61,073 bases of DNA from Candidatus Omnitrophota bacterium (GTDB lineage: Bacteria > Omnitrophota > Gorgyraeia > Zapsychrales > Fredricksoniimonadaceae): positions 1-61,073 of the forward strand of contig PEAR01000001.1 of NCBI GenBank assembly GCA_002753745.1. The letters are read 5' to 3'. Both the position numbers and the translations under genes were made by a program. Of the stretch, positions 815-38,713 are shown in pieces. Each line of letters starts with the position of its first letter. The first letter of the stretch is position 1. The notes below the pieces were generated by a model, which was not told where the DNA came from, ran no database searches, and worked only from the letters and a program-made list of their open reading frames with translations.

Positions 815-1000
815 TTATTCTTGCTGTGCATTAAGATTCTCAGATATAACACTGCCTTCATCCTTCGCCATCTTCTCTCTCAGCCGCCACTCCCCACACG
901 ATGGATTATGGAACACCATTCTCTTGAAGTTGGCGCACCAGCCCTCATCGCCATTCTTTTGCGTCCAATTCTGACAACTTTTGCAGCCTGTCTTCATCAC
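815..1000 (-). CDS. small Cys-containing hypothetical protein (possible zinc-ribbon)
   Basis: 61 aa ORF with CKSC...WC...SCGEW. A strong SD (GGAGG) lies 3-6 nt upstream of tandem ATG codons. No homology recognised. Confidence 0.3.
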   Translation of the reverse strand: MMKTGCKSCQNWTQKNGDEGWCANFKRMVFHNPSCGEWRLREKMAKDEGSVISENLNAQQE

Positions 1001-1100: not shown

Positions 1101-1571
1101 TTACTTCGAGGAACCACAACAAACAGGCGCATTGTTCATCATCATGCAGCAAGTGCAGCCTGACTCCATCATGGTCATCATGCACATGCAGCAATCCTGG
1201 ATCATCTTGGCGCACATCATGTCGCCGCTGGTGCACATCATGCACATGCCGTCCTTGGTCATTTCCATCTTGCACATACCCATCATCATGTTGCAGGTCA
1301 TCATGGTCATGCCGTTCATCATCATCTGAAAACTGACCATACCGCCGTTGAGCATCGTGCAAAGATTCTGCATCATGGCGGCACCCATCTCGTCGGAAGC
1401 CATGCACATGATCTTCATTCCGTCCTTCATCTTCTCCATCTTGAACATGCAGCGCGGGATCATCATCATGTCCATCGTTCCCATGGGCATCCCCGCCGGA
1501 GCCATGCTGGGCATTCCCATCATGTTACGCCCCATTGTCATCATCTGTTTCATTTTCATTTCTGATTTCAT
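1101..1571 (-). CDS. extremely Met- and Cys-rich protein (about 33% Met, 10% Cys), internally duplicated
   Basis: The ORF is open to 1595. The ATG at 1571 has an SD (GGAG, 7 nt spacing). By hand count, 54 Met and 16 Cys in the 164 aa ORF. Two repeats share KME..KDGM..MC..D.M.A.M.Q..C. It has its own terminator and a promoter/operator region. Confidence 0.6.
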   Translation of the reverse strand: MKSEMKMKQMMTMGRNMMGMPSMAPAGMPMGTMDMMMIPRCMFKMEKMKDGMKIMCMASDEMGAAMMQNLCTMLNGGMVSFQMMMNGMTMMTCNMMMGMCKMEMTKDGMCMMCTSGDMMCAKMIQDCCMCMMTMMESGCTCCMMMNNAPVCCGSSK

Positions 1572-1738
1572 CTTGCTTCTCCATTTATCTACCATTGGTA
1601 TGGTAAGAATTCTTTTCGGTGATAAACATATAGCGCTCGTGACTATTTTGCTTCACCGACATGATGAAAGAATAACAAACAACAGACACAATGTCAAGAG
1701 ATATTTGCTGTAAGTCGTTTATTTTCAATACATTATAT

Positions 1739-1763
1739 ACTATATCCCCACTAGGAGAAGTAG
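1739..1763. promoter_or_regulatory. operator-like box ACTATATCCCCACTAGGAGAAGTAG in the divergent intergenic region
   Basis: Near-identical to the minus-strand box CACTATCCCCACTGGGATAGTAGTG at 14831-14856. Lies just downstream of a candidate minus-strand promoter: TTGAAA at 1789-1794, 17 nt spacer, TTAATA at 1766-1771. Confidence 0.45.
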
Positions 1764-1804: not shown

Positions 1805-1832
1805 TTGACAAATCCAATAAACAATATATACT
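1805..1832 (+). promoter_or_regulatory. sigma70-like promoter of the Rrf2 gene
   Basis: TTGACA (1805-1810), 16 nt spacer, TATACT (1827-1832), about 30 nt before the ATG at 1865. It overlaps the second copy of the 12 nt direct repeat TATATACTATAT (1734-1745 and 1825-1836). Confidence 0.55.
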
Positions 1833-1864
1833 ATATTAAATCAATAGGAATTATAGAGTAAAAT

Positions 1865-2305
1865 ATGAAAATTACACACAAAGGCGATTACGCGTTAAAA
1901 GCAATTCTGGACATGTCCGTGCATTACGATGAAGGGTTGGCGACGATCCAGGAAATCGCCAAACGCATCGATGCCCCGGGAAAATTTCTGGAACAGGTAT
2001 TGCTGGAGTTAAAGAAAGGCGGATTCATCGAGAGTCGTCGGGGAAAGATTGGCGGGTATCAGCTGTCCCGGCCCCCTAAGCAGATCACATTGGGTCAAGT
2101 TATTCGCTTCGTCGATGGCCCTCTCGAGCCGATTGCCTGTATCAATGAATGCTACTCCGACTGCGGCGACCTTCATCAATGCGCCTTCCGCCTCATCTGG
2201 CAGCAGGTGTTTCAGGCAACTTCAAATATCGTCGATAACATTACGTTCGCGGATCTGGCCAAAAAGATTGAAGCCGCATCCAAAGTGCCTACATATTCAA
2301 TTTAA
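1865..2305 (+). CDS. Rrf2-family transcriptional regulator with Cys cluster (IscR/NsrR-like)
   Basis: N-terminal winged-helix signature (KGDYALKAILDM...IQEIA...PGKFLEQVLLELKKGGFIESRRGKIGGYQL). Cys cluster CINECYSDCGDLHQC. Confidence 0.9.
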   Translation: MKITHKGDYALKAILDMSVHYDEGLATIQEIAKRIDAPGKFLEQVLLELKKGGFIESRRGKIGGYQLSRPPKQITLGQVIRFVDGPLEPIACINECYSDCGDLHQCAFRLIWQQVFQATSNIVDNITFADLAKKIEAASKVPTYSI

Positions 2306-2316
2306 AGGTGACCTTC

Positions 2317-2541
2317 ATGTCTCGAATAGACAAATACTTCAACCAGACCTCTGATAACTTTACATCCGAACCTTCACTGGATGCCTTCGTGATCTGCCCG
2401 GCCTCCCTGTTCCCTGAGATGACGCCTGAGCAATTCGCTGCAACACAGCAAATCTACAAAGCCGCCTATGAAAAGGCCTGGGCGAAAGTCTACGGGAACG
2501 GTTCAAATCCCGACGACTTTGATCTGGGTAGTGGAATTTAA
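2317..2541 (+). CDS. hypothetical small protein
   Basis: ATG at 2317 preceded by AGGTGA (5 nt spacing). No recognisable domain. Its stop overlaps the convergent HPr-like gene by 4 nt. Confidence 0.35.
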   Translation: MSRIDKYFNQTSDNFTSEPSLDAFVICPASLFPEMTPEQFAATQQIYKAAYEKAWAKVYGNGSNPDDFDLGSGI

Positions 2542-2801
2542 ATCCCCGCGCCATCCTGGAATGTATGGGCAATCTCCCTCATCGCTTCCTTTTCATCAGC
2601 TCCCTCGATAACCAGAGTCACTTCTGAATTTTGCGGCACACCCAGGGAAAGCACATCCAGGATCGATCGCGTGTCCGCCTTGGCTGAATTATGCCAAAGC
2701 TGAATTGTAGAAGTGAATTTCTTCGCGATGGTCACAATACGAGCTGCCTCCCGTAAATGAAGACCATGAAGAGCAAGAATACGTATCTTTTTAGTTTCCA
2801 T
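2538..2801 (-). CDS. HPr-family phosphocarrier-like protein
   Basis: 87 aa. GLHLREAARIV matches the HPr His-15 region, RSILDVLSLGV matches the Ser-46 region, followed by the EGADE motif. Confidence 0.65.
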   Translation of the reverse strand: METKKIRILALHGLHLREAARIVTIAKKFTSTIQLWHNSAKADTRSILDVLSLGVPQNSEVTLVIEGADEKEAMREIAHTFQDGAGI

Positions 2802-2837: not shown

Positions 2838-3056
2838 TTAAAGCTCCCGAAACGATTTCTTCGGCTTATTAGGCGCAACCGGCTTCTTGTTCGAGTATTG
2901 GGCTATCCACGCTTCTGCGTGATGATCAAGCCAGTCGCGAGAGGCCTTCTCTAAGCCGATATCGTGACCGGCCTTCTCACTTTCAACCCACTTAAACCTG
3001 TTGATCTCCTCGACGACTTTCCTGTCTTTTAATAATTCTGAATGAATATTCCCCAT
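2838..3056 (-). CDS. small conserved hypothetical protein (KWVESEKAGHDIG motif)
   Basis: 72 aa. SD AAGGGGGA upstream. Starts 21 nt after the stop of the giant gene, so it is probably co-transcribed. Confidence 0.55.
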   Translation of the reverse strand: MGNIHSELLKDRKVVEEINRFKWVESEKAGHDIGLEKASRDWLDHHAEAWIAQYSNKKPVAPNKPKKSFREL

Positions 3057-3077: not shown

Positions 3078-6000
3078 TTAAACCGCTGACAGTTCCGACG
3101 CTATTTTCAATTCAGATAAAACCGGCATGTTAAGCGGCGTCATAGGCATAATACTTCTGATTACCGGCTCAAGACCGCGAATATCGATCATCGCCGGATC
3201 CTGAAACTGAACCGGCAACGGAACGCCAGCACCATCGACCTTAATGTTGATCTTCAAATTCGAGCTATCCAGATCAATACCGCCAAGGGGCGTTTGTGCC
3301 GAGTCCGTGTTTGTCGGCGGCAACAAAAGATAGGGAAATAAATGCGGAAGAATGACTTCCCCGGCTCGACGAATCGCGATTGAATTGTAATTGCGATGAT
3401 TCCCGATTCCCGTGACATCACCTTGCGGCACAACCAGCACACCGGAAACGCTCTCATCACCGTCTTTGATATCCAGAATCGTTATATCCGCTCCCTCGTC
3501 CAACGGGTGCTCACCGCGTCTGATTCCTTCCGTGTTAACCCACGCGACCTTTGATTTGTAAGCATTCGCCTTGATCGACTGAATAACACGCCTTGCCTCC
3601 AGACCGTCTTCATCAACAAGAACATAATCAGCATCCTTGTCAAACGCCGATGAGCGCAAGAAGCCCTGGTCATCCGTGTTAACTGTCACGAACTCAACTC
3701 TTTCATTCCCAGAGAGATTAAAAAGATGCCCGTCACCCTCCTGAAACTCCTTCGTTAATCGCTCCAGATCAGATCCCTGCTTTGTCGCCACCACTATGCG
3801 GATCGGATCCCCATTCTCTTTTTTGGGCGTATCAAACACCCAATGCTTGAGGAGAATATTAACAGCGCTGGTAAAAGACGGCGTCGAGATCCCCTGATAC
3901 TCCTGACTAAACGCTCGACGGGCACCTGCTTCAGCCAACGCCAAAAGCAATTGCACCGTTGCACTGGCCGGACTTCCAAAACGTCCATAAGTCCGATACG
4001 ATCCTTGAGGTAAATACGGCCCCTTGTCCGGATTTCCAGCAACGCCATTCCAGCCAAATCCCGCCTTGAGATCATCCGGATCATCAGCGCGATAGGCATT
4101 GGACGGATTCCCGCCGCTAGCGACCAGTGACCGGTGATCGCCGCTCAACAACCCCCAAATAGCCGTGTGATGAATCAGCAATGTATGCGGATTGTATTTG
4201 GTGATTAATGTTGATTCATGGATCAGACGTGCTGCTTCCTTAATGCGTGCAGACGTAAACGGAACATATCCGCCGATATCAGCAATTCCTTTAAGAATAT
4301 CCGGCTCAACGTTGTATCCTTCTTTTTTTGCGCGCTTGATGACCGGATATTTGCGCAACGCGTAACCAGTCTTTCCGTCGACATTAGTCGTCGGCTGCAT
4401 AAAGATCGCATCGAGCTGATCGTAAGGAATCTTGTCGAACTTCCCATCGTATAGCTTCAGGATCTGAAAAATTGCCCCCAACTCCCGCAAGACATCTTTT
4501 GTGTCCTCAATACCCACGGCCCAACGGATGCCTCCACGCGTCACGCCGCCTTGCCGCAACTGTTCATCCGTCAGCCCTGACAGCGCCCCGTATCCTGGCA
4601 TCTGCATAAGATTACGAACATCCCCAAGGCTCACAGCATGTTCGATGGTCCTGAAATATCGCAGAAGCGCCATGAACGCCTTGGCCCGCTCTTCCGTCTC
4701 CAGATCAAAATAAATCATGTGCCCCGGATTATTCATCTGCCTTTGCGCAATACCATATTGCGGATGCGATTCATCCCCGGGATATCGGACGAATTTCACC
4801 TGCGGGTTCTTCTTCAGCCATTCAACATAAACCCGGGCGTTTTCCTGCTGCTTAAAGAATCTTTTCTCCAGCGTCGGTAAGCCATAACGAAGAAGTTTCT
4901 TCGCATCATCCTCATTAATCGGCTCGGTCCGAAGACCTTTCAATTCTTCAACAATCTCCTTCTTGGCAACCACAACAGCGCCAAAGACATTGCCGTCGCC
5001 GGAAAGCCCCTTGGTCACGACCTGCACAACAGCATCGATCCCATACTCCAGCGGCTGCTGCCCGAGTGATGTAGCGAATGAACCGTCAAAGATAATAAAC
5101 GCCTCCGGCGATTTTGAATTCCGAACCGTACGCACCACCCTTTCCATATCAACAACCGGCAGCGACGGATTCGCCGGTGTCTCAAAAATTACTGCAGCGG
5201 TATTTCTTGACAACTCCTCAACCAGCTGATTCTCAGGATCAGACACAATCCTGACCTTAAGGCCGTACTTTCGATACAGCTCCACATCGCCTTCCGTCCC
5301 GCCATAGGCAGGACGCACCAGAACGATTTCAGGCGTACGTCCGGGATATTTAAGCGCGAACTGTTTCAAGGCATACCGAAGCGGAAGATGAACACCAGCA
5401 ACACCGGACGCCACGCTAACGCCTGCATACTGCTCTGACAGCAAATTCTGTGTTTCCAGATCAGCAACTGCCCTCTCCACTTGCTCAACCACACTCCTGC
5501 CTTGGCGCTTATCATCAACAAGAGGTAAATCAGGCCCGGATCCGCTAACAACCGGCGATGTATTGACCGTGCGGCGCTCCGGAATAATAGAAGATGGCGA
5601 AACCCCTTCCGGCGTTGTTAAAACAATCCCCAAATCATCAGCAATCTCAACAGGAATAGCCTTTCTATCTTTCTTCTGCGGCAGCCGGATCTCATTAATA
5701 CCGACAACGGTTGCCCCAGCTGGGACATCTTTGGAGACCGTTGCGTTAGCGCCTATCTTGGCGCCATCACCAATAGTGACTGTTCCCACAATACTGGCTC
5801 CAGCACCCAGCAAAACACCATTACCAACAATCGGATGTCTTCTGCCATCTGCCGTGACTTTTCCATTCGACCCCAGCGTCACCCCATGAAGAAAATACAC
5901 ATCATCGCCGACAATCGCGGTCTCGCCGACAACAACACCAATTCCATGATCAATAACAACACCCTTACCAATTGTCGCTCCGGGATGAATATCCACACCA

Positions 6001-8312
6001 AAGGCAATCGAAACCCGGCTCTGAAATCGCAAAGCAAGTTCCTGTCGACCGTTCAACCACAGCCAATGCGCCACGCGATACGCCGCCAGCGCATGAAAAC
6101 CCTTAAAGTTTAAAAACGGCGTCGAAAGCTTGTCAGATGCCGGATCACGCTCAAGTACGGCAAGCAGATCGCGACGAATGGCATCAAGAATATCCGGGGA
6201 AGCACTCAACGCTTCTTTCACCGTTGTCCTGACATCCTCGGCGTCCATGTGTTCCGACGCCAATTTGTTTGCCAACAAATAAGAAATCGCCGACTCCAGA
6301 TCCGGTTGATCAAGAATCGTTTTCTTGAGGTACTCTGCAAGCTGCCGCTCTTTCTTCGCAATCGAATCGGCTTCCTCGTACAAACGGCTCCAGACCGGAT
6401 CAGAAGACACAGTCGTCCTGGGAGATGCTTTTAAGGATGATGTCCTTACGCCTGCTGGCGCACTCTTCTTCCGTACTTGCTGTGGCTTTTCCTTCTTCTC
6501 TGGTGTTCTCGAAGAAACAGCAACCTCCTTCTTCAGCGCATCCAACCGCTGCCACGCCTCCTGCGGATGAATAGGTGCAACCTGACGGGTATCCCGATGT
6601 TGCCGCAAATCCTTTGAGATGGTCTCATCAGAAACAACAATCAACCCCTGAATACCGTTTTGCTTTGCTCTCTCATCAGTTCTGCTAATTGCATCACTCT
6701 GTTCGACACGAGCTGCACTGAACGCAAGAAGCGTCTGGGGGCTTTTTACACCAGCAGTCCGAGAAACTTCATCAAAACGTTCTGACTTGGAAAACGGAAA
6801 AAACACAATCGCTGTCTGTTTAGATAACGCATCCTGCAAATCATCAAAATTTGTCACAATCCGTGCTTCATTCGGATTTTGTCTGGCGTACAGGACAAAC
6901 ACATTATCTGCGGGTGATTCCGGCGGAATATAAAATACAGCTTCGCCATTGCCTTGCTCAATCCCGGACCGCTCCTTGGCAAAATGGATCAAATTGGCAA
7001 CTGCCGCCAGCTTTGTTGAATAACTGACCCCGTCGAATTTTCCCTCTTCCCCCTGAAAATGGACTCGCGCCGTCAGCTGCTCAACAGCTCTCACTGTTTC
7101 ATCATTCAAATCTTTTCTGCGGGCCACGAGATCAGCATGTGTTTTCTCAATTGCCCTGACCAAGTCAGTATCAACAATCTCTCGTCCGGGCTTGGACAAG
7201 AACTCCGTTGCCGAACCCTGACTCGCATCCGATATAATCTCAGGCGCGACGCCTACCATGCCGCCGGAGAAATATTTTCTCGGCAGAGTCTCGTGCGTTA
7301 AAGGATCTTCTTCCTCCTTGATATAGTTGAACACGCCAACCTTAAACGCCTCCAGATACCTCTCGTAGATCTTATCCTTTGCCTTCGGGTCATCGACCTC
7401 AACACCAGCGACCTTGTTTTTATCCGTGTAGACTTGGTTAACAAGACTTGCCTTAAGCGCCTGTTTAAACCATGTCGCCAGGATCATGGCATTATAAATC
7501 TGACGCAGCGGAGCAAAATTCTCTCCCTCGTTCACTTCTTTCTCAATGATCGGCAGAATAATTTCCCGGACAGCATTGACCGTAAATTCCTTCTTCCCTT
7601 CAACGCCATCCGCTGAATCTGAAATCTGAACATCAGATGACAGCTCATGGCTGGCTTTCTCCGCCAGATAATCTTTCTCCAGCATGACCTTTAAATGACT
7701 CTTCACAAGAAACGCAGCGCCATCTTTCTGATAAACCTCTGCCTTGTCTGCCCGAACCCAAATCTTGTTAAATGTATCAACCGGAATATCAGTTGTGCCC
7801 AATTTATCGTAGGCTTGAGCATATACTTTCCGCCAAAAGCCTCTGCCCACATCCTCTTCGGGATACATCAATGATGCCGTAAACTGCTTGAGGACATAAT
7901 CCTGACCCAACAACTCCTGACCGGTACTTGTCTGGGCAAAGCTGTTGCCAATAATGCGATGCGCTTCATAGGGCGACAGATTGACCCACACATCCTTATT
8001 GGGGATTGTCAGCGACGCCAAAAAATGCCTGATAAGCCGACTGTATTCTTGCTTCTTTTGCGTGTCTGACAATGGACGGTCACCCTGATCAACGACAAAA
8101 TAGAAATGAAAGGGATTATGCTGATCCACCTTTAACCCGACAATCTGGGGAGGATTAAAGGCATTCGTTGGAGAAAGACGCACGCCGGGAACCGGTAGCG
8201 GCAGCACCACCTGCGCGTAACCGGATTGAACTGGTATTGCGCTCAACATGGCTGTGATAAGTCCAACAGCGATGAAACGGAAAATGGATGTCTTTTGAAT
8301 TTGATGCAACAT
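3078..8312 (-). CDS. 1744 aa signal-peptide protein: shared N-module + unknown region + serine O-acetyltransferase domain + Cys/Met-metabolism PLP domain + degenerate PLP-like region + shared GGIDL C-module
   Basis: Uninterrupted ORF with SD AGGAG 7 nt upstream. Signal peptide ends GYAQ. Domain evidence is given in the sub-features below. Confidence 0.9.
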   Translation of the reverse strand: MLHQIQKTSIFRFIAVGLITAMLSAIPVQSGYAQVVLPLPVPGVRLSPTNAFNPPQIVGLKVDQHNPFHFYFVVDQGDRPLSDTQKKQEYSRLIRHFLASLTIPNKDVWVNLSPYEAHRIIGNSFAQTSTGQELLGQDYVLKQFTASLMYPEEDVGRGFWRKVYAQAYDKLGTTDIPVDTFNKIWVRADKAEVYQKDGAAFLVKSHLKVMLEKDYLAEKASHELSSDVQISDSADGVEGKKEFTVNAVREIILPIIEKEVNEGENFAPLRQIYNAMILATWFKQALKASLVNQVYTDKNKVAGVEVDDPKAKDKIYERYLEAFKVGVFNYIKEEEDPLTHETLPRKYFSGGMVGVAPEIISDASQGSATEFLSKPGREIVDTDLVRAIEKTHADLVARRKDLNDETVRAVEQLTARVHFQGEEGKFDGVSYSTKLAAVANLIHFAKERSGIEQGNGEAVFYIPPESPADNVFVLYARQNPNEARIVTNFDDLQDALSKQTAIVFFPFSKSERFDEVSRTAGVKSPQTLLAFSAARVEQSDAISRTDERAKQNGIQGLIVVSDETISKDLRQHRDTRQVAPIHPQEAWQRLDALKKEVAVSSRTPEKKEKPQQVRKKSAPAGVRTSSLKASPRTTVSSDPVWSRLYEEADSIAKKERQLAEYLKKTILDQPDLESAISYLLANKLASEHMDAEDVRTTVKEALSASPDILDAIRRDLLAVLERDPASDKLSTPFLNFKGFHALAAYRVAHWLWLNGRQELALRFQSRVSIAFGVDIHPGATIGKGVVIDHGIGVVVGETAIVGDDVYFLHGVTLGSNGKVTADGRRHPIVGNGVLLGAGASIVGTVTIGDGAKIGANATVSKDVPAGATVVGINEIRLPQKKDRKAIPVEIADDLGIVLTTPEGVSPSSIIPERRTVNTSPVVSGSGPDLPLVDDKRQGRSVVEQVERAVADLETQNLLSEQYAGVSVASGVAGVHLPLRYALKQFALKYPGRTPEIVLVRPAYGGTEGDVELYRKYGLKVRIVSDPENQLVEELSRNTAAVIFETPANPSLPVVDMERVVRTVRNSKSPEAFIIFDGSFATSLGQQPLEYGIDAVVQVVTKGLSGDGNVFGAVVVAKKEIVEELKGLRTEPINEDDAKKLLRYGLPTLEKRFFKQQENARVYVEWLKKNPQVKFVRYPGDESHPQYGIAQRQMNNPGHMIYFDLETEERAKAFMALLRYFRTIEHAVSLGDVRNLMQMPGYGALSGLTDEQLRQGGVTRGGIRWAVGIEDTKDVLRELGAIFQILKLYDGKFDKIPYDQLDAIFMQPTTNVDGKTGYALRKYPVIKRAKKEGYNVEPDILKGIADIGGYVPFTSARIKEAARLIHESTLITKYNPHTLLIHHTAIWGLLSGDHRSLVASGGNPSNAYRADDPDDLKAGFGWNGVAGNPDKGPYLPQGSYRTYGRFGSPASATVQLLLALAEAGARRAFSQEYQGISTPSFTSAVNILLKHWVFDTPKKENGDPIRIVVATKQGSDLERLTKEFQEGDGHLFNLSGNERVEFVTVNTDDQGFLRSSAFDKDADYVLVDEDGLEARRVIQSIKANAYKSKVAWVNTEGIRRGEHPLDEGADITILDIKDGDESVSGVLVVPQGDVTGIGNHRNYNSIAIRRAGEVILPHLFPYLLLPPTNTDSAQTPLGGIDLDSSNLKINIKVDGAGVPLPVQFQDPAMIDIRGLEPVIRSIMPMTPLNMPVLSELKIASELSAV
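3081..3287 (-). other. shared C-module (GGIDL...DPAM...P.I..I.PMT)
   Basis: LGGIDLDSSNLKINIKVDGAGVPLPVQFQDPAMIDIRGLEPVIRSIMPMT aligns with the C-termini of the 1033 aa and 1415 aa proteins. Confidence 0.8.
4458..5465 (-). other. Cys/Met-metabolism PLP-dependent enzyme domain (CGS/OAH-sulfhydrylase family), aa ~950-1285
   Basis: VIFETPANPSLPVVD, IIFDGSFAT, a VTKGLSGDGNVFGAVVV candidate PLP-lysine motif, VRYPG..SHPQY..A.RQM, VSLGD..NL...P and IRWAVGIED. Confidence 0.7.
5697..6404 (-). other. serine O-acetyltransferase (CysE-like) domain, aa 637-872
   Basis: SATase N-terminal helical region (FLNFKGFHALAAYRVAHWLW..GR..LA). Left-handed beta-helix hexapeptide repeats (GVDIHPGATIGKGVVIDHGIGVVVGETAIVGDDVYFLHGVTLG...RHPIVGNGVLLGAGASIVG.VTIGDGAKIGANATV). 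Confidence 0.8.
7260..8210 (-). other. shared N-module (aa 35-351) of the giant protein
   Basis: Aligns by eye with the N-termini of the 1033 aa and 1415 aa proteins. Shared blocks: NPF.F.F..D.G, R.I..FLAS.T.P.KD.WVNLSPYE, GQ/RDLL.QDY.LKQ.TAS, FW.KVY, D.PVDTFNK.W, KEVNEG.NF..LRQ.Y, Y.EAFK.G..NYI, RKYFSGG. Confidence 0.85.
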
Positions 8313-8335
8313 AACTACTCCTGTGTTTAATAAAA

Positions 8336-8494
8336 CATTGGCTTACGTGACCCCGTTCAGCTTGCAGGAACTGTAAGTTCCTGGCGTAGCCTCAGGGGTA
8401 TTTGCCAAGAATCCTTGGCAAATAAATAAGCCCAAAACATTCCGGGATTTCTTCCCGAACATTCTGGGCTTCCAGTTATCTGGTCAGACCTGTT
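8336..8494 (-). promoter_or_regulatory. conserved leader/attenuator RNA, copy 2 (between the CBS-type gene and the giant gene)
   Basis: Minus-strand RNA ACAGGUCUGACCAGAUAACUGGAAGCCCAGAAUGUUCGGGAAGAAAUCCCGGAAUGUUUUGGGCUUAUUUAUUU. This is a CCAG/CUGG hairpin followed by a terminator-like hairpin and a U-tract. It is followed by the palindromic hairpin UUUGCCAAGGAUUCUUGGCAAA and a further nested hairpin, the same order as in copy 1. Confidence 0.55.
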
Positions 8495-8510
8495 AGAAAG
8501 GCTCTATGTT

Positions 8511-9881
8511 CTACACATCTCTTTTCCTCTTCAGATAATTCAATAAATCAATTCTTGTGACAACACCGTAAAACTTGTCCTCATCCTGAATGATCGCTGT
8601 ATAACCTTTCTTCAAAACCGCAACAAGGCTCTTCAAATCTTCCCGCGGACTCAACACTTCCGGGTCGGTAGCCATGTAATGCGCGACTTTCTCTTCAAAC
8701 TTGTGTGTATCCAAATCTTCAAACGCCAAAAGAAGGTCGGATTCATCAATAATCCCAACAGCTTTTCCATGATCAATAACAGGAAGCTGCGAAATGTCAT
8801 ACAACTTCATTCGCGAATAAGCGGTTGCGACTGAATCTTCCGGGCGAACGGAGACAACGCTATTTGAACTGTACGTCCGGGTAATCAGATCCCTGAGATC
8901 CCCCTCTTCTTTCCGTTCCAAGAGCCCCTGATCCAGAAGCCAATGATCGTTGTAAACCTTGGACAAATATTTATTCCCACTGTCACAGACAAACGTCACA
9001 ATATTTTTGGGTGTCTTCTGTTCTTTAGCATAACGGATCGCAGCCCCGAGCAAAACGCCCGTCGATGAACCCGCCAGAATTCCTTCCTTGCGCAAGAGAT
9101 CACGCAAGATCAAAAAGGCCTCTTTATCAGAAATCGAATACGCCTTCTTTACCAAAGAAAAATCAGCCTGAGCCGGAATAAAATCTTCTCCTATGCCCTC
9201 GACCCGCCAGCTTCCGGCTGTGCCAAACTTTCCTGTCGTCACATGATCGACCAGCACGGAGCCTTCCGGGTCAGCCAAAACAAACTCGATCCCCGGATGC
9301 ACCTTCCTGAAATAATCCGTCAGCCCTCTGATCGTCCCGGCAGATCCAACACCGACAGAGATGGCATCCACCTTGTGATCCATCTGTTCCCAGATCTCAG
9401 GCCCTGTTGTCGTAACATGTGCCAGCGGATTAGCCGGGTTATTGAACTGATCTACAAAGAACGAATTCGGGATCTCCTTTGAGAGCCTGAGAGCATAGTC
9501 CTGATAATACTCCGGATGGCCCTTCTCGACGTCAGAACGCGTCATGACGATCTCGGCACCCATCGCCTTCAGGCAGGCTATTTTCTCCTGACTCATTTTG
9601 TCAGGGATGACTAGCAAAAGCCGGTAGCCTTTTCGTGCCGCGACCAGAGCCAGCCCAAGACCCGTATTCCCAGCCGTAGCTTCAATCAGCGTATAACCTT
9701 TCTTTATCTTACCCTCTCGCTCTGCCGCCTCGATCATGGACAAACCGATCCTGTCCTTGATGGCACCAGATGGGTTCAGGTTCTCAAGCTTGAGAAATAA
9801 CCGGCATACCCCGACGTCAAAACTTTTGACCTCAACAATAGGCGTGTGCCCGATCAGCTCAAGAATATCCTTGTAGATCAT
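8511..9881 (-). CDS. cystathionine beta-synthase / cysteine synthase family PLP enzyme with C-terminal CBS-domain pair
   Basis: PALP-fold motifs (NLNPSGAIKDR, EATAGNTG, GVGSAGT, SSTG). About 130 aa C-terminal tandem CBS region. Confidence 0.8.
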   Translation of the reverse strand: MIYKDILELIGHTPIVEVKSFDVGVCRLFLKLENLNPSGAIKDRIGLSMIEAAEREGKIKKGYTLIEATAGNTGLGLALVAARKGYRLLLVIPDKMSQEKIACLKAMGAEIVMTRSDVEKGHPEYYQDYALRLSKEIPNSFFVDQFNNPANPLAHVTTTGPEIWEQMDHKVDAISVGVGSAGTIRGLTDYFRKVHPGIEFVLADPEGSVLVDHVTTGKFGTAGSWRVEGIGEDFIPAQADFSLVKKAYSISDKEAFLILRDLLRKEGILAGSSTGVLLGAAIRYAKEQKTPKNIVTFVCDSGNKYLSKVYNDHWLLDQGLLERKEEGDLRDLITRTYSSNSVVSVRPEDSVATAYSRMKLYDISQLPVIDHGKAVGIIDESDLLLAFEDLDTHKFEEKVAHYMATDPEVLSPREDLKSLVAVLKKGYTAIIQDEDKFYGVVTRIDLLNYLKRKRDV

Positions 9882-14601: not shown

Positions 14602-14644
14602 ACGCTTCTTCCTTTCATTGTTTTTTATATCGAAATCCACTTCG

Positions 14645-14790
14645 GCCCCGGAAGCCCTTTAGGCTTCCAGGAGGCCTTCGGGATGTTTTTGAAAGAATTC
14701 TTTCAAAAACAAAAAGGCCCAAAACAAGTCCGGGATTAACCGGAAATATTTTGGGCCTCCAGATGTCTGGTGAGCCTGTCTACTGATTGC
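14645..14790 (-). promoter_or_regulatory. conserved leader/attenuator RNA, copy 1 (5' UTR of the permease operon)
   Basis: GACAGGCUCACCAGACAUCUGGAGGCCCAAAAUAUUUCCGGUUAAUCCCGGACUUGUUUUGGGCCUUUUUGUUUUU, then the palindromic hairpin UUUGAAAGAAUUCUUUCAAA and the nested hairpin GGAAGCCUAAAGGGCUUCC. Lies between a consensus promoter and the CDS. Confidence 0.6.
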
Positions 14791-14830
14791 ACCCGGAGCG
14801 TAAAGAATACCGCCCCTTAATTCAGCAAAT

Positions 14831-14885
14831 CACTACTATCCCAGTGGGGATAGTGGAAATATAACACATCAATAACGTTTGTCAA
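14831..14885 (-). promoter_or_regulatory. sigma70-like promoter plus inverted-repeat operator
   Basis: Minus strand: TTGACA (14880-14885), 16 nt spacer, TATATT (14858-14863), then the inverted repeat CTATCCC-N4-GGGATAG (14836-14853) 4 nt downstream of the -10. Confidence 0.6.
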
Positions 14886-18599: not shown

Positions 18600-19001
18600 C
18601 TAAACCAGATCCGCCAACGTTGTATTCTCAAGCTTCTTGGATACATAATCCCTGATCTCCTTAAATACCCGGATCAAACTCTTCTCCTTCTCTATTGGAG
18701 TATGTTCAAAGAAATATACGCTGACCGACTCTGTTGGCGCAAGAGCGCCGTCAAACAAACGCACCACCTCTGCCAGACTGATCTTGTCAGCCGACTTCCC
18801 CAGCGCATATCCCCCGTGCTGACCTTTAGAACTTTTCAGATATCGGGCTCTTTTGAGAGTAAGCAGAATTTGCTCAAGAAACTTTGGGGGAATGGCTTGC
18901 GCCTTGGCAATTGTATCAACCGAAACAAGGACGTCTGCTTCCTGACGGGCAAGATAAAGAAGAGCTAGCAATGCATATTCGCTGCGTGATGTGAGCTTCA
19001 T
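18600..19001 (-). CDS. Rrf2-family regulator lacking the Cys cluster (CymR-like)
   Basis: SRSEYALLALLYLAR...IPPKFLEQILLTLKRARYLKSSKGQHGGYAL. No Cys ligands. Confidence 0.9.
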   Translation of the reverse strand: MKLTSRSEYALLALLYLARQEADVLVSVDTIAKAQAIPPKFLEQILLTLKRARYLKSSKGQHGGYALGKSADKISLAEVVRLFDGALAPTESVSVYFFEHTPIEKEKSLIRVFKEIRDYVSKKLENTTLADLV

Positions 19002-19105: not shown

Positions 19106-19918
19106 TCACTCGATAGGGATAACAGCACCCTTATATCGCTCTTTTATAAACTGCATAATTTGATCAGAATGTAAGACCGTCAGCAGTTCCTTAATCTCCG
19201 GGCGATCCTCATCGCCCTTGCGCACAGCCACAAGATTGGCATACGTTTTAGCGGCGATCGATGTCGATGATTCGGATGCCAAAGCATCTGTCAGCGGAGA
19301 GAGCCCGGCGTCAATGGCATAATTGCCATTGATGACTGCGGCCGATACACTGCCCAGTACTCGTGGCAATTGCGCGGCCTCGATCTCAACAAGCTCAATC
19401 TTGACACTGTAACTTGCTATATCCTTTATCGACGCGTTCAAGTCACCAGGACTTTTTAATTTTATGATCCCGTTATCCTGCAAAAGAATTAATGCTCTCG
19501 CCTCGTTAGACACATCATTAGGAATAGCAACTTTTTCTCCTGCTTGTAATTCCTTCAAATCCTTAATTTTCTTTGAATATATTGCCAACGGCTCATAGTG
19601 GACGGTCCCAGCCGATACGAGCTGCGATTTATTAGCATTATTGAAATCCTCTAAATAAGGAAGATGCTGAAAATAATTAGCATCAAGACTTTTGTCGTTT
19701 AGCGCCAGATTCGGTGTCATATAGTCGGTAAACACCTTGATCTGAAGATTAACTCCCTTTGCCGCCAACAGCACCTTTGCCTTTTCAAGTATCTCGGCAT
19801 GCGGAACCGGTGTTGCACCGATAACCAGAACTAAGTCCTTGGACTGGGCATGGGAAATCACCCCAAAAACAATGGCCACGATCAAAACGGCAACACTCAA
19901 TATTCTTTTCCGATTCAT
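19106..19918 (-). CDS. metQ: methionine ABC transporter substrate-binding protein (MetQ/NlpA family)
   Basis: Signal peptide MNRKRILSVAVLIVAIVFGVISHA with no lipobox Cys. NlpA-family body. Start set at ATG 19918, which removes the overlap with metI. Confidence 0.85.
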   Translation of the reverse strand: MNRKRILSVAVLIVAIVFGVISHAQSKDLVLVIGATPVPHAEILEKAKVLLAAKGVNLQIKVFTDYMTPNLALNDKSLDANYFQHLPYLEDFNNANKSQLVSAGTVHYEPLAIYSKKIKDLKELQAGEKVAIPNDVSNEARALILLQDNGIIKLKSPGDLNASIKDIASYSVKIELVEIEAAQLPRVLGSVSAAVINGNYAIDAGLSPLTDALASESSTSIAAKTYANLVAVRKGDEDRPEIKELLTVLHSDQIMQFIKERYKGAVIPIE

Positions 19919-19934
19919 AACACCCCCGCCTTCA

Positions 19935-20600
19935 TTATTTCTTATCTGCATCCCGCGCGATCTTGTCGCCAATAATCTGTATGACCTGAACAATAATGAT
20001 CAGCACCACGACCGTAACAAGCATGACATCTGTCCGATACCGGTAATAACCGAAACGGATCGCCAGATCTCCAACCCCGCCGCCGCCCACGATCCCGGCC
20101 ATAGCAGAATAGCCAACCAAGCTGATCGCCGTAACCGTAACACCGCGAACAAGGCCGGGAAATGCCTCCGGCAACAGAACCTCCTTAATAATCTGGAAAG
20201 GGCTTGCGCCAAACGCTGTAGCCGCCTCGATCACGCCGCGATCAACTTCGCACAATGATGCCTGCACAAGCCGCGCGTAGAACACAATCGCCGCGACGGT
20301 AAGCGACACTGACGCGGCAACAGGGCCGATCGTCGTTCCTGTCAACCTCTGTGTCAACGGCAACAATAACACCAGCAAAATAACAAACGGCGTCGAACGG
20401 ATAACATTGATCAAGAAACCACTTATATTATGCAAAAGACGGTTTTCCCAAAACAGACCCCGATCAGAAGCAAACAAGAGAAGTCCAAGAACAAACCCCG
20501 CATCGATCGACAACACCAGCGAAATTCCCAGCATCTGAAATGTTTCCCAAAACGCTTTCAGAAAATCAGGCCAAAGAGATAACAAATATTGATTACCCAT
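19935..20600 (-). CDS. metI: methionine ABC transporter permease
   Basis: About 5 TM segments, EAA-like loop (EAATAFGASPFQI). Lies between metN and metQ. Confidence 0.9.
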   Translation of the reverse strand: MGNQYLLSLWPDFLKAFWETFQMLGISLVLSIDAGFVLGLLLFASDRGLFWENRLLHNISGFLINVIRSTPFVILLVLLLPLTQRLTGTTIGPVAASVSLTVAAIVFYARLVQASLCEVDRGVIEAATAFGASPFQIIKEVLLPEAFPGLVRGVTVTAISLVGYSAMAGIVGGGGVGDLAIRFGYYRYRTDVMLVTVVVLIIIVQVIQIIGDKIARDADKK

Positions 20601-21600
20601 GAATGACCTCCACTGAGGCTGTTCGTGTTCTCAAGTATTCGATCGTCTGACCGACTCCCTGCTCATTCCCGGTAATATTCAGGATCAGGACACCCAACGG
20701 CTGATCATTGATGTACTCGATCTTCCCGTGCAACACATTGATGCCCACCCCGAATTCCCGAATCGCGTCAGATAAAACCGGCTCTTCAGCCTTGATCCCT
20801 TTATAAACAGCTTTGACCAAAGCCCCCTTCGCGCTACCCAAAACTCTTTCTGGCAGCTCAAGATCAAGAGAATGCGCCACCAATGACTGCGTCAAAGAAT
20901 GCTGTGGCGAGGCAAAGATGTTATACACATTCCCCTCTTCAACAACAACGCCTTCAGACATCACAGCAACCCTCGTACACACCTTCTTGATCACACTCAT
21001 CTCATGTGAAATAAGGAGCATCGTTATACCCAACTTACGATGAATACCCTTAAGCAGGTCCAGGATCGCGTTGGTCGTTTCCAAATCAAGCGCGGAAGCC
21101 GGTTCGTCGCATAACAGGATCCGCGGATCATTGGCAAGCGCACGCGCTATGCCCACCCGCTGCTTCTGCCCGCCGGAGAGTTTTGAAGGATAGGCATATA
21201 TTTTGTCCAACAGCCCGACAAGCTCCAAAAGATAAAGCACTCTTTTTGCTATTTCCGTTTGCGGCTTCCCGGCAATCCTCATCGGAAACGCCACGTTATC
21301 AAAAACGGTCTTAGTGTGGATCAGATTAAACTGCTGAAAGATCATCCCGATCTTCTGACGAACCCGCCGAAGATCAATCCCTGAATAACACGTAATATCC
21401 ACCGAATCGATAACAACACGGCCGAAAGTCGGCTTTTGCAAAAGATTGATCGTCCGCAAGAGCGTGCTCTTCCCGGCACCACTGGTCCCGACAATGCCGA
21501 AAACATCCCCCTCACGAATAGAAAGACTGACGCCATTGACGGCCCTGAGCAGCCGCTGGGTTCCATGAAATTCAACAGACACATTATCAATCGTTACCAT
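20593..21600 (-). CDS. metN: methionine ABC transporter ATPase with C-terminal NIL domain
   Basis: GTSGAGKSTL, LSGGQKQRVGIARAL, LLCDEPASALD, and a C-terminal NIL-like region. Confidence 0.9.
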   Translation of the reverse strand: MVTIDNVSVEFHGTQRLLRAVNGVSLSIREGDVFGIVGTSGAGKSTLLRTINLLQKPTFGRVVIDSVDITCYSGIDLRRVRQKIGMIFQQFNLIHTKTVFDNVAFPMRIAGKPQTEIAKRVLYLLELVGLLDKIYAYPSKLSGGQKQRVGIARALANDPRILLCDEPASALDLETTNAILDLLKGIHRKLGITMLLISHEMSVIKKVCTRVAVMSEGVVVEEGNVYNIFASPQHSLTQSLVAHSLDLELPERVLGSAKGALVKAVYKGIKAEEPVLSDAIREFGVGINVLHGKIEYINDQPLGVLILNITGNEQGVGQTIEYLRTRTASVEVIHG

Positions 21601-34619: not shown

Positions 34620-36353
34620 ATGCGCGCAGCCATCTATGCCCGATATTCATCTGAAAATCAGAGCGAAAAGAGCATTGATGACCAGATCCGTGTATGCAAG
34701 AAATACTGCGCAGAACATGATATTACTGTCGCGGAAAACAGCATCTTCATTGATGAGGCAACATCAGGGTCCCTGGTCAAACGTCCAGGGCTAAGCGCTT
34801 TTGAGAATGCTGCTGAAAACAAAGAATTTGAAGCACTCGTTGTCGATGATCTTTCCCGTCTCTCCAGAAGCAACCACCAGATGCTCACCCTGGTCTTAAA
34901 ATTCAACTACCTCCAGGTAAAGCTCATTTCTGTATCAGACGGCATCATTACCGACGACGAAAACTCCAAACTCGGCATCCAGATGCGCGGGCTTATCAAT
35001 GAACTCTACCTTGATGATTTAAAGAAGAAAACAATGCGCGGCCTTGAGGGGCAGAAACTGCGGGGATTTAGCGTCGGAGAGAATGTTTACGGCTACGTAA
35101 CACAGCCCGTTGGCGAGCTTAAGATCAACAAAAAGGGCGTAGCCAAATACGACGGTAAAGTTCATAAGATCAATCCCGAAGAAGCAGACGTTGTAAAAAG
35201 GATCTGCCTGGACTTTACCTCTGGAAAAAGCATCAACAAGATCGTCGAGCAGCTGAATACTGAAAAGATCCCGACAAAGAAGCATATGGCCGGCGGCTGG
35301 AGCATTTCAACGATCAGCCGTATCCTCAAGAGCGCTAAATACGTCGGTATATGGAAATGGAAAACAAGTAAAAGCGTTCGAGACCCCATGTCAGGAAAAA
35401 GAAAATCTGTGTCCCGACCTGAAAGCGAGCATCTATCCTTTCTTCGGGAAGACCTGATCATCATCGACAAAGAACTCTGGAACAAGGCACAGAAGCGCTG
35501 GGCAGATATCAAGGGCACCTGGCCTGTCAGCAAGAAAAAGAAGGGCTTCTATAAGCAAAAGAGTTACGCCCATACCAGCCCCACCTACCTCCTGTCAGGT
35601 CTTATGAAATGCCAGTCTTGCGGTGGAGCGGTCATTCTTATCAGCGGCAAAGGATCAGGATATTACGGATGCTACAACGCCCGGCGGAAGTCATGCCACA
35701 ACACCCTGCTTGTCCCCCGCAAGAGGATCGAGCAGATTATCATCCAAGAGCTCCAGCAAAAACTCCTGACAACGGAGAATCTTGAATACATCTTCAAGAA
35801 CATTGAGAAGCTTGCCGCAGCAGGGCTTAATGAAGTTCCTGAGCTGACCCAAAAGAAGAAGGCTCAAATGGAAAAGCTTAAGATAGAAATTCAGAATTAC
35901 ATGAACTTCATCAGGACGGGAAATATATCGAAGACAGTATCAGAAGCATTATCTGAAGCGGAAAAGAAGAATGAAGAACTGAAACACGATATCGAAGGTT
36001 TGGAATTTCAGAAGAATAATACTTTTAAGACCCCACCCAAGGAGTGGATCGATCACAGACTGGGCAGCCTGCGGGACACGCTCAATAAAGACACGGTCAA
36101 CTCTGCCTTAGCCCTGAAGGAACTGCTCGGGACGGTGACGCTCGAACCTATACTAACAAAGGAAAGTGACTATTACAGGCTGTTTGAGGGGACGGACCGG
36201 AACTTTAAGCCTTACTACGTGGCCCATACAAAAATTCAAACCCTTGCCCTCCTCGAGGAGAAAGACAAGGGTTCGAATTGGTGCCAATGGTGGAGGTGCC
36301 GGGAATCGAACCCGGGTCCTTCAGTGTCAAAGATTAAGCATCTACATGCGTAG
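34620..36353 (+). CDS. large serine recombinase
   Basis: Resolvase catalytic N-terminus AAIYARYSSENQSEKSIDDQ, recombinase domain, Cys4 zinc ribbon (CQSCGG...CYNARRKSC), coiled-coil C-terminus. Confidence 0.9.
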   Translation: MRAAIYARYSSENQSEKSIDDQIRVCKKYCAEHDITVAENSIFIDEATSGSLVKRPGLSAFENAAENKEFEALVVDDLSRLSRSNHQMLTLVLKFNYLQVKLISVSDGIITDDENSKLGIQMRGLINELYLDDLKKKTMRGLEGQKLRGFSVGENVYGYVTQPVGELKINKKGVAKYDGKVHKINPEEADVVKRICLDFTSGKSINKIVEQLNTEKIPTKKHMAGGWSISTISRILKSAKYVGIWKWKTSKSVRDPMSGKRKSVSRPESEHLSFLREDLIIIDKELWNKAQKRWADIKGTWPVSKKKKGFYKQKSYAHTSPTYLLSGLMKCQSCGGAVILISGKGSGYYGCYNARRKSCHNTLLVPRKRIEQIIIQELQQKLLTTENLEYIFKNIEKLAAAGLNEVPELTQKKKAQMEKLKIEIQNYMNFIRTGNISKTVSEALSEAEKKNEELKHDIEGLEFQKNNTFKTPPKEWIDHRLGSLRDTLNKDTVNSALALKELLGTVTLEPILTKESDYYRLFEGTDRNFKPYYVAHTKIQTLALLEEKDKGSNWCQWWRCRESNPGPSVSKIKHLHA

Positions 36354-36699
36354 ACCGTCTTTATTGTCGACTGGCGTGTTTCAACGGACAAACCCGCGCC
36401 AGACCAGCACTCTAAAATCTCGTCTTAAGAACAAGTGCGATCCTTAAGACCAGCCTGTTTGGTTCCAATGATAAAGCGACAGACTCCCTTTACCACAGGG
36501 CTTAGCCTAATTAATTAGGCTAAGACGAGGTCGTCGGCTCCGACGGGCGCAACGCTGTTCGCGCAGGCCAGATCGAAGTCGGCAGTCGTTAACGTAGTTT
36601 CGTTAGCGTTTATTGTTTGATGGAACTTTAACGAGGCCAACCATCATCCTCGGCATGCCACCTAACCCCGGCTCACTCAAGTCGAGGCCAATCACCCCC
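36288..36699 (-). ncRNA. ssrA: tmRNA (ssrA)
   Basis: 5' end GGGGGUGAUUGGCCUCGAC. 3' end GGACCCGGGUUCGAUUCCCGGCACCUCCACCA (T-arm, acceptor, encoded CCA). The internal tag frame ends ...DDLVLA-UAA inside the palindrome UAGCCUAAUUAAUUAGGCUA. smpB is adjacent. Confidence 0.9.
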
Positions 36700-38628: not shown

Positions 38629-38713
38629 GCGGAAGTGGTGAAATTGGCATACACGTAGGTCTCAGAAGCCTATGGCGCAAGCTGTGAGGGTTCAAGTCCC
38701 TCCTTCCGCACCA
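38629..38713 (+). tRNA. tRNA-Leu (anticodon CAG), CCA encoded
   Basis: Cloverleaf folded by hand. Acceptor GCGGAAG/CUUCCGC, anticodon arm UAGGU-CUCAGAA-GCCUA, long variable arm, T-arm GAGGG-UUCAAGU-CCCUC. Confidence 0.9.

Follow-up and report, generated by a model that had tools for sequence, protein, structure and literature searches.

Several described systems resemble a protein of unusual composition encoded near one end of a 61,073-nucleotide stretch of DNA (hereafter the window) from a Candidatus Omnitrophota bacterium (assembly GCA_002753745.1, contig PEAR01000001.1, positions 1 to 61,073 of the forward strand), in which roughly one residue in three is methionine (Met) and one in ten is cysteine (Cys). 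Csp1 and Csp3 (DUF326) resemble it in concept, as small, stable folds in which sulfur side chains line the core and can hold many Cu(I) ions, and Csp3 is cytoplasmic; however, the Csp proteins are four-helix bundles relying on Cys only, whereas the window protein, whose fold is a prediction, is a β/α repeat with a Met:Cys ratio of ~3:1, and it displays neither a DUF326 match in Pfam nor a structural match in the PDB. Bacterial metallothioneins (SmtA/BmtA, MymT) resemble it in part, being small and Cys-rich, with CC, CxC, and CxCC motifs, few His or aromatic residues, and no signal peptide. The window protein is ~2-3 times larger, is predicted to fold without metal (predicted local distance difference test score, pLDDT, >90), is dominated by Met at 34%, and matches no metallothionein model in Pfam or NCBIfam. 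Extreme Met (and Cys) content linked to sulfur supply is known from seed storage proteins such as the maize δ-zeins and Brazil-nut 2S albumin (PMC3420316; PMC4227475). These are eukaryotic products of the secretory pathway, unrelated in sequence to the window protein. Their Met content of ~18-27% lies below the 33-34% found here, and the window protein is, to our knowledge, among the most methionine-rich natural proteins. Regulons of the Rrf2 family, such as that of CymR for cysteine metabolism and that of IscR for iron-sulfur assembly, resemble the locus in the divergent Rrf2 gene beside Cys/Met enzymes and in the palindromic boxes at promoters; we know of no Rrf2 regulon containing a protein of this kind. 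In concept the protein is like the Csp or seed storage proteins; it stands apart through the dominance of methionine, a predicted fold that is new, and an association with Rrf2 and Cys/Met gene clusters that has no precedent.

Judged by its sequences, the protein belongs to a real, conserved, and hitherto undescribed family of bacterial proteins. Our favored, though tentative, reading is that it is a cytoplasmic binder of Cu(I) or other soft metals whose expression would be tied to the supply of Cys and Met.

The gene was singled out in an earlier reading made from the sequence alone (the sequence-only reading), which described a 164-residue open reading frame (ORF) at 1101-1595 (minus strand). 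Translation reproduced its counts of 54 Met (32.9%) and 16 Cys (9.8%) and the residue runs that it had quoted. The extent of the ORF held, but translation probably begins at the ATG at 1571, not at the ATG at 1595, because the former and the GGAG 8 nt upstream, already taken as a Shine-Dalgarno sequence in that reading, are kept across four Omnitrophota orthologs, one of which (L005) has TTG in place of the ATG at 1595. The coding sequence and its parts are as follows:

1101-1571, minus strand: Met/Cys-rich coding sequence, 156 codons plus stop (translation, conserved start, substitution rates, GenBank MBF0594126.1)
1464-1571, minus strand: N-terminal tail, residues 1-36, Met/Gly/Pro-rich, predicted disordered (pLDDT <50 for residues 8-36)
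1284-1460, minus strand: repeat 1, residues 38-96, with predicted strands 40-48 and 51-58, helix 61-73, and strands 79-85 and 88-94 (pLDDT >90)
1104-1283, minus strand: repeat 2, residues 97-156, with CC/CxC motifs, predicted strands 99-105 and 108-114, helix 118-136, and strands 140-145 and 148-154

The 156-residue product holds 53 Met and 16 Cys (34% Met, 10% Cys, ~44% together), and its 69 sulfur atoms account for 12.7% of a mass of 17.4 kDa. Median contents over the 100 window ORFs of at least 100 aa are 2.0% Met and 1.1% Cys, and the runners-up in Met are shadow frames of the gene itself. GenBank carries the identical product (MBF0594126.1) under the label "hypothetical protein". In comparison with three Omnitrophota orthologs, the ratio of nonsynonymous to synonymous substitution (dN/dS) is 0.04-0.19 and substitutions concentrate at the third codon position (e.g., 4/2/23 by position). 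These two results settle the reading frame, a point for which the sequence-only reading had proposed a codon-position check, and they indicate that the ORF is a real gene under purifying selection.

The homolog search proposed in the same place revealed a family. A word-indexed protein search retrieved 112 clusters at 90% identity, nearly all of 140-180 aa, of which every one named at its source is "hypothetical" and none carries a Pfam domain. When 1.84 billion representative proteins were searched exhaustively with the family profile, only 192 clusters (50% identity) came back at E<=0.001, and 191 GTDB species genomes encode a relative. Most members come from Planctomycetota (Gemmataceae, Isosphaeraceae, Singulisphaera, Limnoglobus, Paludisphaera), with others scattered through Omnitrophota, Clostridium (arbusti, kluyveri), Abditibacteriota, and Chitinispirillaceae; a second gene copy occurs in a few genomes only (Limnoglobus roseus, Paludisphaera soli). 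The family is thus represented in culturable organisms, namely Singulisphaera acidiphila, Limnoglobus roseus, Paludisphaera soli, and Clostridium kluyveri. The profile search also yielded a sister clade with ~21% Cys and 4% Met, as well as rare relatives of ordinary composition, such as P0212 and P0182; a word-index search with the alignment of these relatives found only six proteins, and the gene contexts of P0212 and P0182 were uninformative. In agreement with the earlier statement that no characterized family looks like this, the window protein matched nothing in Pfam or NCBIfam at E<=0.01 (nor did three relatives in NCBIfam), and a profile search against PDB sequences gave nothing even at E<=10. 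Full-text literature searches returned nothing relevant on such a protein or on its copper-operon relatives, and the publication that pairs "methionine-rich" with Rrf2 in bacterial sulfur metabolism is unrelated. No plasmid copy of the gene was found by BLAST run with the low-complexity filter on.

AlphaFold2, run on a 102-sequence alignment (mean pLDDT 81.6), predicts residues 37-156 with pLDDT >90 as a hairpin-helix-hairpin unit occurring twice, so that a protein with one Met in three residues receives a confident fold prediction yet has no solved analogue. A Foldseek search against the PDB gave no match at E<=0.001 (best TM-score, a measure of structural similarity, 0.27); the TEAD2 and Ig-like folds that headed its results (TM ~0.25) were treated as noise. 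The internal duplication noticed in the sequence-only reading is borne out, both segments being present: HHalign pairs one half of the family profile with the other at 97% probability (E=5e-11), and none of 2000 composition-preserving shuffles reaches the observed score (z=6.7). Ahead of the repeats stands a tail whose length in different family members ranges from 19 to 75 aa and whose composition includes 35% Met and 15% Gly. There is no hydrophobic stretch resembling a signal peptide, the maximum 12-residue hydropathy averaging 0.76 versus 3.0 in the secreted YHS proteins described below, and the protein is therefore probably cytoplasmic.

When alignment columns were labeled hydrophobic or polar from the relatives of ordinary composition, Met and Cys were found to occupy 37 of 53 hydrophobic columns in the window protein versus 9 of 53 polar columns. 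By this comparison, the hydrophobic core of an ordinary small fold is rewritten in sulfur. Over 100 full-length members, the core contains 24 ± 5.6% Met and 19 ± 3.0% Cys, for a combined 43 ± 4.4%, and the two shares are anticorrelated (r=-0.65). The commonest substitute at conserved Cys positions is Met (35% of replacements), and at conserved Met positions the commonest are Leu, Cys, Val, and Ile. Near-invariant across phyla are many Cys/Met positions along with P39, G51, Q68-N69, N86, G87, and T114-S115-G116-D117. Conserved cysteines include Cys41/56/71/93 and Cys100/113/127/128/139/151/152. CC, CxC, and CxCC motifs are present in the family, His amounts to 0.15%, and Phe, Trp, and Tyr each stay below 0.3%.

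One line of evidence on function is remote homology to a module of copper-operon proteins; a second, the gene context, points in another direction. The exhaustive profile search retrieved P0259 at E=2e-8 with three matched stretches. P0259 and 25 relatives are secreted proteins with a signal peptide, one or two YHS domains, and sometimes a heavy-metal-binding domain (HMBD), followed by a Met/Gly(/His/Cys)-rich linker and one to three modules of the form MMMKDVExKVENTKDGxxxTxTSKNPETVKMIQDHxxxM, often with a Gly-Cys motif. HHalign matched this module to repeat 2 of the window family at 95.6% probability (E=1.2e-8) and to repeat 1 at 44%, and AlphaFold2 predicts it as a hairpin plus helix, in the same order as in the window protein. 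Genes for the YHS-module proteins directly follow a CopA-type ATPase gene in two unrelated contexts, CsoR-CopA-P0259 and CopA-P0302 (58 nt between genes). Members of the copA-operon group (P0259, P0291-P0310), which carry no annotation beyond "YHS domain-containing protein", share with the window family the hairpin-plus-helix module with its motif K.E.TKDG...T.TS.D....KMIQ, a Met/Gly-rich low-complexity stretch, "MMM" before the module, and the Gly-Cys motif after the helix. They differ in their signal peptide, the YHS domain with or without HMBD, the usually single module, normal hydrophobic residues, and a preference for Met/His rather than Cys. The window protein, conversely, has no YHS domain (no Pfam match) and no signal peptide, carries two full repeats, and reaches 44% Met+Cys; its gene sits with Rrf2 and Cys/Met neighbors instead of in a csoR-copA operon. 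The His of MIQDH in the YHS module aligns with Cys127 of MIQDCC in the window protein. Periplasmic Cu(I) sites tend toward Met/His and cytoplasmic sites toward Cys; established copper biochemistry would predict that Met/His ligands give way to Cys upon a move from periplasm to cytoplasm.

Under the favored reading, thioethers and thiols of the core would bind and sequester soft metal ions, most likely Cu(I), making the protein a functional analogue of metallothioneins and Csp on an unrelated fold, with Met as the dominant ligand. The neighboring Rrf2 protein would control its synthesis together with genes for Cys/Met uptake and biosynthesis, a coupling proposed because a protein with 44% Met+Cys needs that supply. 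Copper poisons iron-sulfur clusters, and Rrf2 proteins with an IscR-like Cys triad bind a cluster of this kind; the three-Cys Rrf2 encoded in the window is therefore a plausible sensor, which could report damage to iron-sulfur clusters or thiols. The copper homology, the positional constraint, and the metallothionein-like motifs argue for a specific ligand-binding role; the constraint (dN/dS of 0.04-0.19, non-sulfur residues invariant or nearly so) appears tighter than simple storage would call for, and a core written in sulfur, as in Csp, also counts toward metal binding. The Rrf2/Cys/Met context in several phyla and a common promoter box argue for a tie to Cys/Met homeostasis. From these lines of evidence we infer metal binding, the identity of the metal, the cellular location, and the regulatory logic. 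Should the protein bind metal, it would join metallothioneins and Csp as a third structural answer to the buffering of cytoplasmic copper, the first based mainly on thioethers, and would link copper handling to cysteine/methionine regulation through Rrf2.

The genetic context on which the regulatory part of this proposal draws comprises the following elements:

1669-1697, minus strand: promoter of the Met-rich gene, sigma-70-type with 10 of 12 consensus matches (TTGACA at 1697-1692, 17-nt spacer, TATTCT at 1674-1669)
1572-1662, minus strand: 5′ leader of ~91 nt with two hairpin-forming segments (GTCGGTGA...TCACCGA and TTACCAT-N4-ATGGTAG), conserved in four Omnitrophota genomes
1580-1583, minus strand: Shine-Dalgarno GGAG, 8 nt before ATG 1571, conserved as AGGAGAAG in orthologs L003-L005
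1055-1071, minus strand: intrinsic terminator hairpin followed by a T-run (terminator scan)
1744-1756, plus strand: operator-like box ATCCCCACTAGGA, centered ~88 nt upstream of the inferred transcription start and conserved in L003-L005
14835-14854, minus strand: second box, a perfect 8-4-8 palindrome ACTATCCC-CACT-GGGATAGT, just after the -10 element of the permease/aminotransferase/O-acetylhomoserine sulfhydrylase/CBS operon promoter
1734-1745, minus strand: copy 1 of the palindromic 12-mer ATATAGTATATA, abutting the operator-like box
1825-1836, minus strand: copy 2 of the same 12-mer, overlapping the -10 element of the Rrf2 promoter, conserved in orthologs
1865-2305, plus strand: divergent Rrf2-family regulator with Cys92/Cys100/Cys106 (Pfam Rrf2, 5.5e-38), promoter at 1805-1832

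Both promoter hexamers of the Met-rich gene are conserved in Omnitrophota orthologs, and its transcription start was placed from the position of the -10 element. The sequence-only reading had named upstream promoters and a terminator at 1046-1085, and a minus-strand promoter, the plus-strand Rrf2 promoter, and the hairpin with its T-run were all located. It had further described an operator box shared with a sulfur-permease operon. A 13-nt box, ATCCCCACTRGGA, does recur: the window contains two exact copies and no others, one at 1744-1756 and one at 14839-14851. However, the operon bearing the second copy begins with a general APC-type amino-acid permease (PF00324), not a dedicated sulfur permease. 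The palindromic 12-mer ATATAGTATATA has two exact copies in the window versus 0.08 expected.

The divergent Cys-cluster Rrf2 described in the earlier reading is supported by its Pfam match and the Cys92/Cys100/Cys106 triad, which is IscR-like and kept in relatives of this regulator; the protein scores under the NCBIfam equivalog cut-offs for both CymR and IscR. The Met-rich gene stands at the edge of a 23-kb Cys/Met island occupying the first 23 kb of the contig. Besides a 1744-aa fusion of a serine acetyltransferase with a Cys/Met pyridoxal phosphate (PLP) enzyme, this island encodes CBS-type, O-acetylhomoserine sulfhydrylase-like, and NifS-like enzymes and a class-III aminotransferase, together with two amino-acid permeases, MetQ/MetI/MetN, and a second Rrf2 protein, which is devoid of Cys.

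This association recurs within a set of 90 loci of Met-rich family members. An Rrf2 gene lies near the Met-rich gene in 23 of them, and other neighbors are a NAD_binding_9 flavin adenine dinucleotide (FAD) protein (9 loci), Cys/Met PLP enzymes (9), cysteine dioxygenase (8), and CBS (8). Counting Rrf2 or any Cys/Met-related enzyme (NifS-like and serine acetyltransferase included, the FAD protein left uncounted) gives 29 of 90 loci, spanning Omnitrophota, several planctomycete families, and Chitinispirillaceae, or at least three phyla. Rrf2 adjacency itself is seen in Omnitrophota, Isosphaeraceae, Gemmataceae, Chitinispirillaceae, and one unassigned contig, and in an unbiased Pfam tally of 212 close neighbors at 87 loci, Rrf2 was the top family. 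Planctomycete genomes usually carry, by our own estimate, a handful of Rrf2 genes, and on this basis 23 loci within ~1.1 Mb of flanking sequence amount to an enrichment of tens of fold. The accompanying regulators belong to the three-Cys subtype in some lineages and to a subtype without it in others. In Isosphaeraceae, genes for the FAD protein, cysteine dioxygenase, and Rrf2 are followed by the Met-rich gene on the other strand and then by lyase and CBS genes converging on it. In Chitinispirillaceae, a NifS-like gene comes after the Met-rich one on its own strand, and genes for a RuBisCO-like protein, MnmA, Rrf2, and a Cys/Met PLP enzyme lie within ~6 kb. There the Rrf2 gene directly adjoins mnmA with the NifS-like gene ~4 kb away; in Bacillus subtilis, cymR, yrvO, and mnmA are adjacent. 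The one direct metal neighborhood, which counts in favor of metal binding, is that of C. kluyveri, where the Met-rich gene stands 1.5 kb upstream of genes for two HMA_2 proteins and a P-type ATPase (L088, L089), the only P-type ATPase nearby among the 90 loci.

Several of these results weigh against a metal-binding role. The Pfam tally, in which cysteine dioxygenase, CBS, Cys/Met PLP, and NifS-like enzymes recur alongside Rrf2, contained no recurrent metal-homeostasis family, and no homologs of CopZ, CueR, CsoR, SmtB, or CusF appeared in ~170 loci, a weak negative given approximate query sequences. The YHS proteins are themselves uncharacterized, and the homologous module could be a scaffold only. 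We know of no Rrf2-family copper sensor, and the described cytoplasmic Cu(I) proteins known to us rely on Cys and not on 25-33% Met. Finally, a combined Met+Cys share held near 43% while Met and Cys trade off is explained equally well in terms of sulfur content. The sequence-only reading had offered two roles, a Met/Cys store or sink and a soft-metal binder, without choosing between them; both stand as the leading explanations and neither is proven. The remote homology to the copper-operon YHS module favors metal, and the recurrence of Rrf2 and Cys/Met neighbors in several phyla keeps a sulfur role alive.

A less probable but substantial alternative is a sulfur amino-acid reserve or sink, a bacterial equivalent of the sulfur-rich seed storage proteins, which would be made under Rrf2 control when Met and Cys are plentiful and degraded upon sulfur shortage to set both free. 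The context just described suits it: Rrf2 or a Cys/Met-related enzyme is encoded at 29 of 90 loci, the Isosphaeraceae gene lies between Rrf2-cysteine dioxygenase-FAD and cystathionine lyase-CBS genes, the window gene borders the 23-kb island, and the operator-like box, a candidate regulator site, is common to the promoter of a Cys/Met operon. Composition points the same way, with 12.7% sulfur by mass, Met+Cys near 43%, Cys replaced mostly by Met (35%), and high Met content retained in GC-rich genomes though ATG is generally disfavored there. Yet storage proteins usually evolve fast and lack a precise fold, whereas here non-sulfur positions are strongly constrained, and homology links the repeat to a module found in proteins of copper-export operons. 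Moreover, the Cys-rich sister clade displays neither Rrf2 nor Cys/Met enzyme neighbors at 80 loci, about two-thirds of the Met-rich loci lack sulfur context, second copies occur only in the few genomes named above (Limnoglobus roseus, Paludisphaera soli), and the literature searches gave no bacterial precedent. In this reading the reserve would derive from a copper-binding ancestor. The bolder version, slightly less probable again, is that the protein would be the first prokaryotic ribosomally made sulfur reserve or gauge known, built on the stable fold of a copper-binding ancestor with its core rewritten in Met and Cys; it could be made only with both amino acids in ample supply, would store them, and would possibly signal sufficiency to Rrf2 as a member of the Cys/Met regulon. 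If it is a sulfur store, the protein would constitute a new kind of bacterial nutrient reserve. A soluble, folded protein of 34% Met could also aid methionine enrichment of feed or crops, for which δ-zeins have had limited success (PMC4227475).

It is unlikely that the protein is a sacrificial redox or sulfur-carrier protein that absorbs HOCl or peroxide, carries sulfane sulfur or persulfide, or holds iron-sulfur material. Some Rrf2 proteins sense redox state or iron-sulfur clusters and the window Rrf2 has the IscR-like triad; the NifS-like gene follows the Met-rich gene in Chitinispirillaceae, CBS and lyase neighbors can make H2S, a thioredoxin-domain protein is encoded just upstream in C. 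kluyveri, and a peroxiredoxin-like gene adjoins one Cys-rich relative. Set against these observations, no MsrA or MsrB homolog was found near any member with approximate query sequences, a CxxCxxC...CP-type iron-sulfur motif is absent, most Met and Cys occupy core rather than surface positions, a poor fit to an oxidant sink, and the homology points to copper proteins.

Less likely still is a regulatory gauge, with 44% of its codons calling for Met-tRNA or Cys-tRNA and translation thus possible only when both amino acids are plentiful, whose product would partner Rrf2 in the manner of CysK and CymR to report sufficiency. The divergent pairing with Rrf2, conserved in several phyla, would agree with it, as would a constraint strong enough for a specific binding surface and the motif M-x-[ST]-x-M-M-x-E-R kept in many members of both clades. 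However, the interaction with Rrf2 is putative, most loci lack an Rrf2 gene within 8 kb and the Cys-rich clade lacks it altogether, and the copper-operon homology is left unexplained. That the ORF is a chance frame in ATG/CAT-rich DNA, or overlies a real gene in another frame, can be set aside, since long alternative ORFs do overlap it but the selection analysis (dN/dS 0.04-0.19, substitutions mostly at codon position 3) refutes the idea, as do the 112 and 192 clusters (90% and 50% identity) and 191 species genomes with a relative, the confident AlphaFold2 model, and the promoter, ribosome-binding site, and terminator, conserved or detected. The remaining share of probability falls to roles outside this list.

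Further observations concern the noncoding elements. The second leader hairpin of the Met-rich gene, TTACCAT-N4-ATGGTAG, sits just before the ribosome-binding site. No Rfam family matched the leader region 1540-1900 even at E<=10, scans of the window and of two further loci at the Rfam gathering threshold found no riboswitch, and the alignment of four leader sequences shows no covariation, RNA structure and DNA operator being indistinguishable there. Six Isosphaeraceae loci (L016, L025, L029, L044, L065, L071) carry AT-rich repeats, TGATGATCA...ATCATGATCA, ~150 nt upstream of the Met-rich gene. Such TGATGATCA-type motifs were rejected as a general family element, being confined to a few Isosphaeraceae loci. 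Another Isosphaeraceae motif, CTATCGACTTAAT, near the Rrf2 start resembles CCTATTGATTTAAT in the leader of the window Rrf2 gene (1841-1854), and the pair may represent a conserved Rrf2 auto-operator.

The motif M-x-[ST]-x-M-M-x-E-R stands at or near the N-terminus of many Met-rich and Cys-rich members (e.g., P0015, P0047, P0113, P0118); kept despite a variable tail, it may serve as a tag for recognition or degradation. The sister clade rich in Cys and poor in Met (L095-L174) derives mostly from soil metagenomes. Its genes repeatedly converge on one encoding a ~300-350 aa protein with two DUF4142 matches and a weak DUF305 match, examples of this uncharacterized neighbor being L101:665-1567 (minus strand) and L173:1167-3061 (minus strand), and in ~3 loci on the sulfate ATP-binding cassette (ABC) transporter genes cysW and cysA. 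Rrf2 genes and Cys/Met enzyme genes were not found beside this clade in the 80 loci.

Among the Met-rich loci, 20 from Gemmataceae encode a ~222-aa secreted protein near the Met-rich gene (e.g., L033:1279-1950, plus strand). This protein matches nothing in Pfam or the PDB, and its gene, at loci where it was called, lies directly downstream on the same strand. In four loci, a gene for a ~390-aa secreted protein, with one very Cys-rich segment and one rich in Met/Pro, converges on the ~222-aa gene (L033:2059-3243, minus strand). Twelve Gemmataceae loci have a DDE_5 transposase-like gene upstream of the Met-rich gene and on its strand (e.g., L052:6385-7377, plus strand); it falls between Rrf2 and the Met-rich gene in L052 and L076, and may be a domesticated or anciently inserted element.

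Within the island, the 1744-aa fusion (3078-8312, minus strand) consists of ~630 aa of unknown nature, SATase_N plus hexapeptide repeats, the Cys/Met PLP enzyme, and an unknown C-terminal part of ~460 aa. Its orthologs from L003 and L005 show 39-69% identity to parts of it, and the pairing of two cysteine-pathway enzymes is unusual. The leaders of the fusion gene (8313-8515, minus strand) and of the permease operon (14641-14850, minus strand) have in common a ~130-nt element of 68% identity with two hairpins, one of them terminator-like (GGCCCAAAAT...GTTTTGGGCC plus a T-run). No Rfam family matches this element, which may represent an attenuator or riboswitch of Cys/Met operons not yet described. 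Farther along, a MetQ/MetI/MetN methionine ABC importer (19106-21600, minus strand; NlpA lipoprotein, permease, and ATPase with NIL domain) is adjoined by the Cys-less Rrf2 gene (18600-19001, minus strand), which heads a cluster encoding an ABC ATPase, a CobW-like GTPase, the NifS-like enzyme, and a small Fe-S protein.

Close to the Met-rich gene, a 61-aa ORF with a CxxC...C...C pattern (815-1000, minus strand) begins a short way past the terminator. None of the fetched loci has a homolog, no Pfam family matches, and the ORF may be spurious. The transposase fragment reported next to the gene in the sequence-only reading corresponds to a weak IS3-like match at 129-719, and this neighbor is not conserved elsewhere. 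On the other side, the Rrf2 gene is followed by a conserved 77-aa ORF (2308-2541, plus strand) also present in L003 and L005, on which an HPr-like gene converges (2538-2801, minus strand), and then by a small ORF with a weak DUF4032 match (2838-3056, minus strand). The Chitinispirillaceae contig L085 likewise has an HPr-like gene close to its Met-rich gene. Elsewhere, the window encodes an ordinary tmRNA (36288-36699, minus strand; 174 bits) and an equally ordinary tRNA (38629-38710, plus strand).

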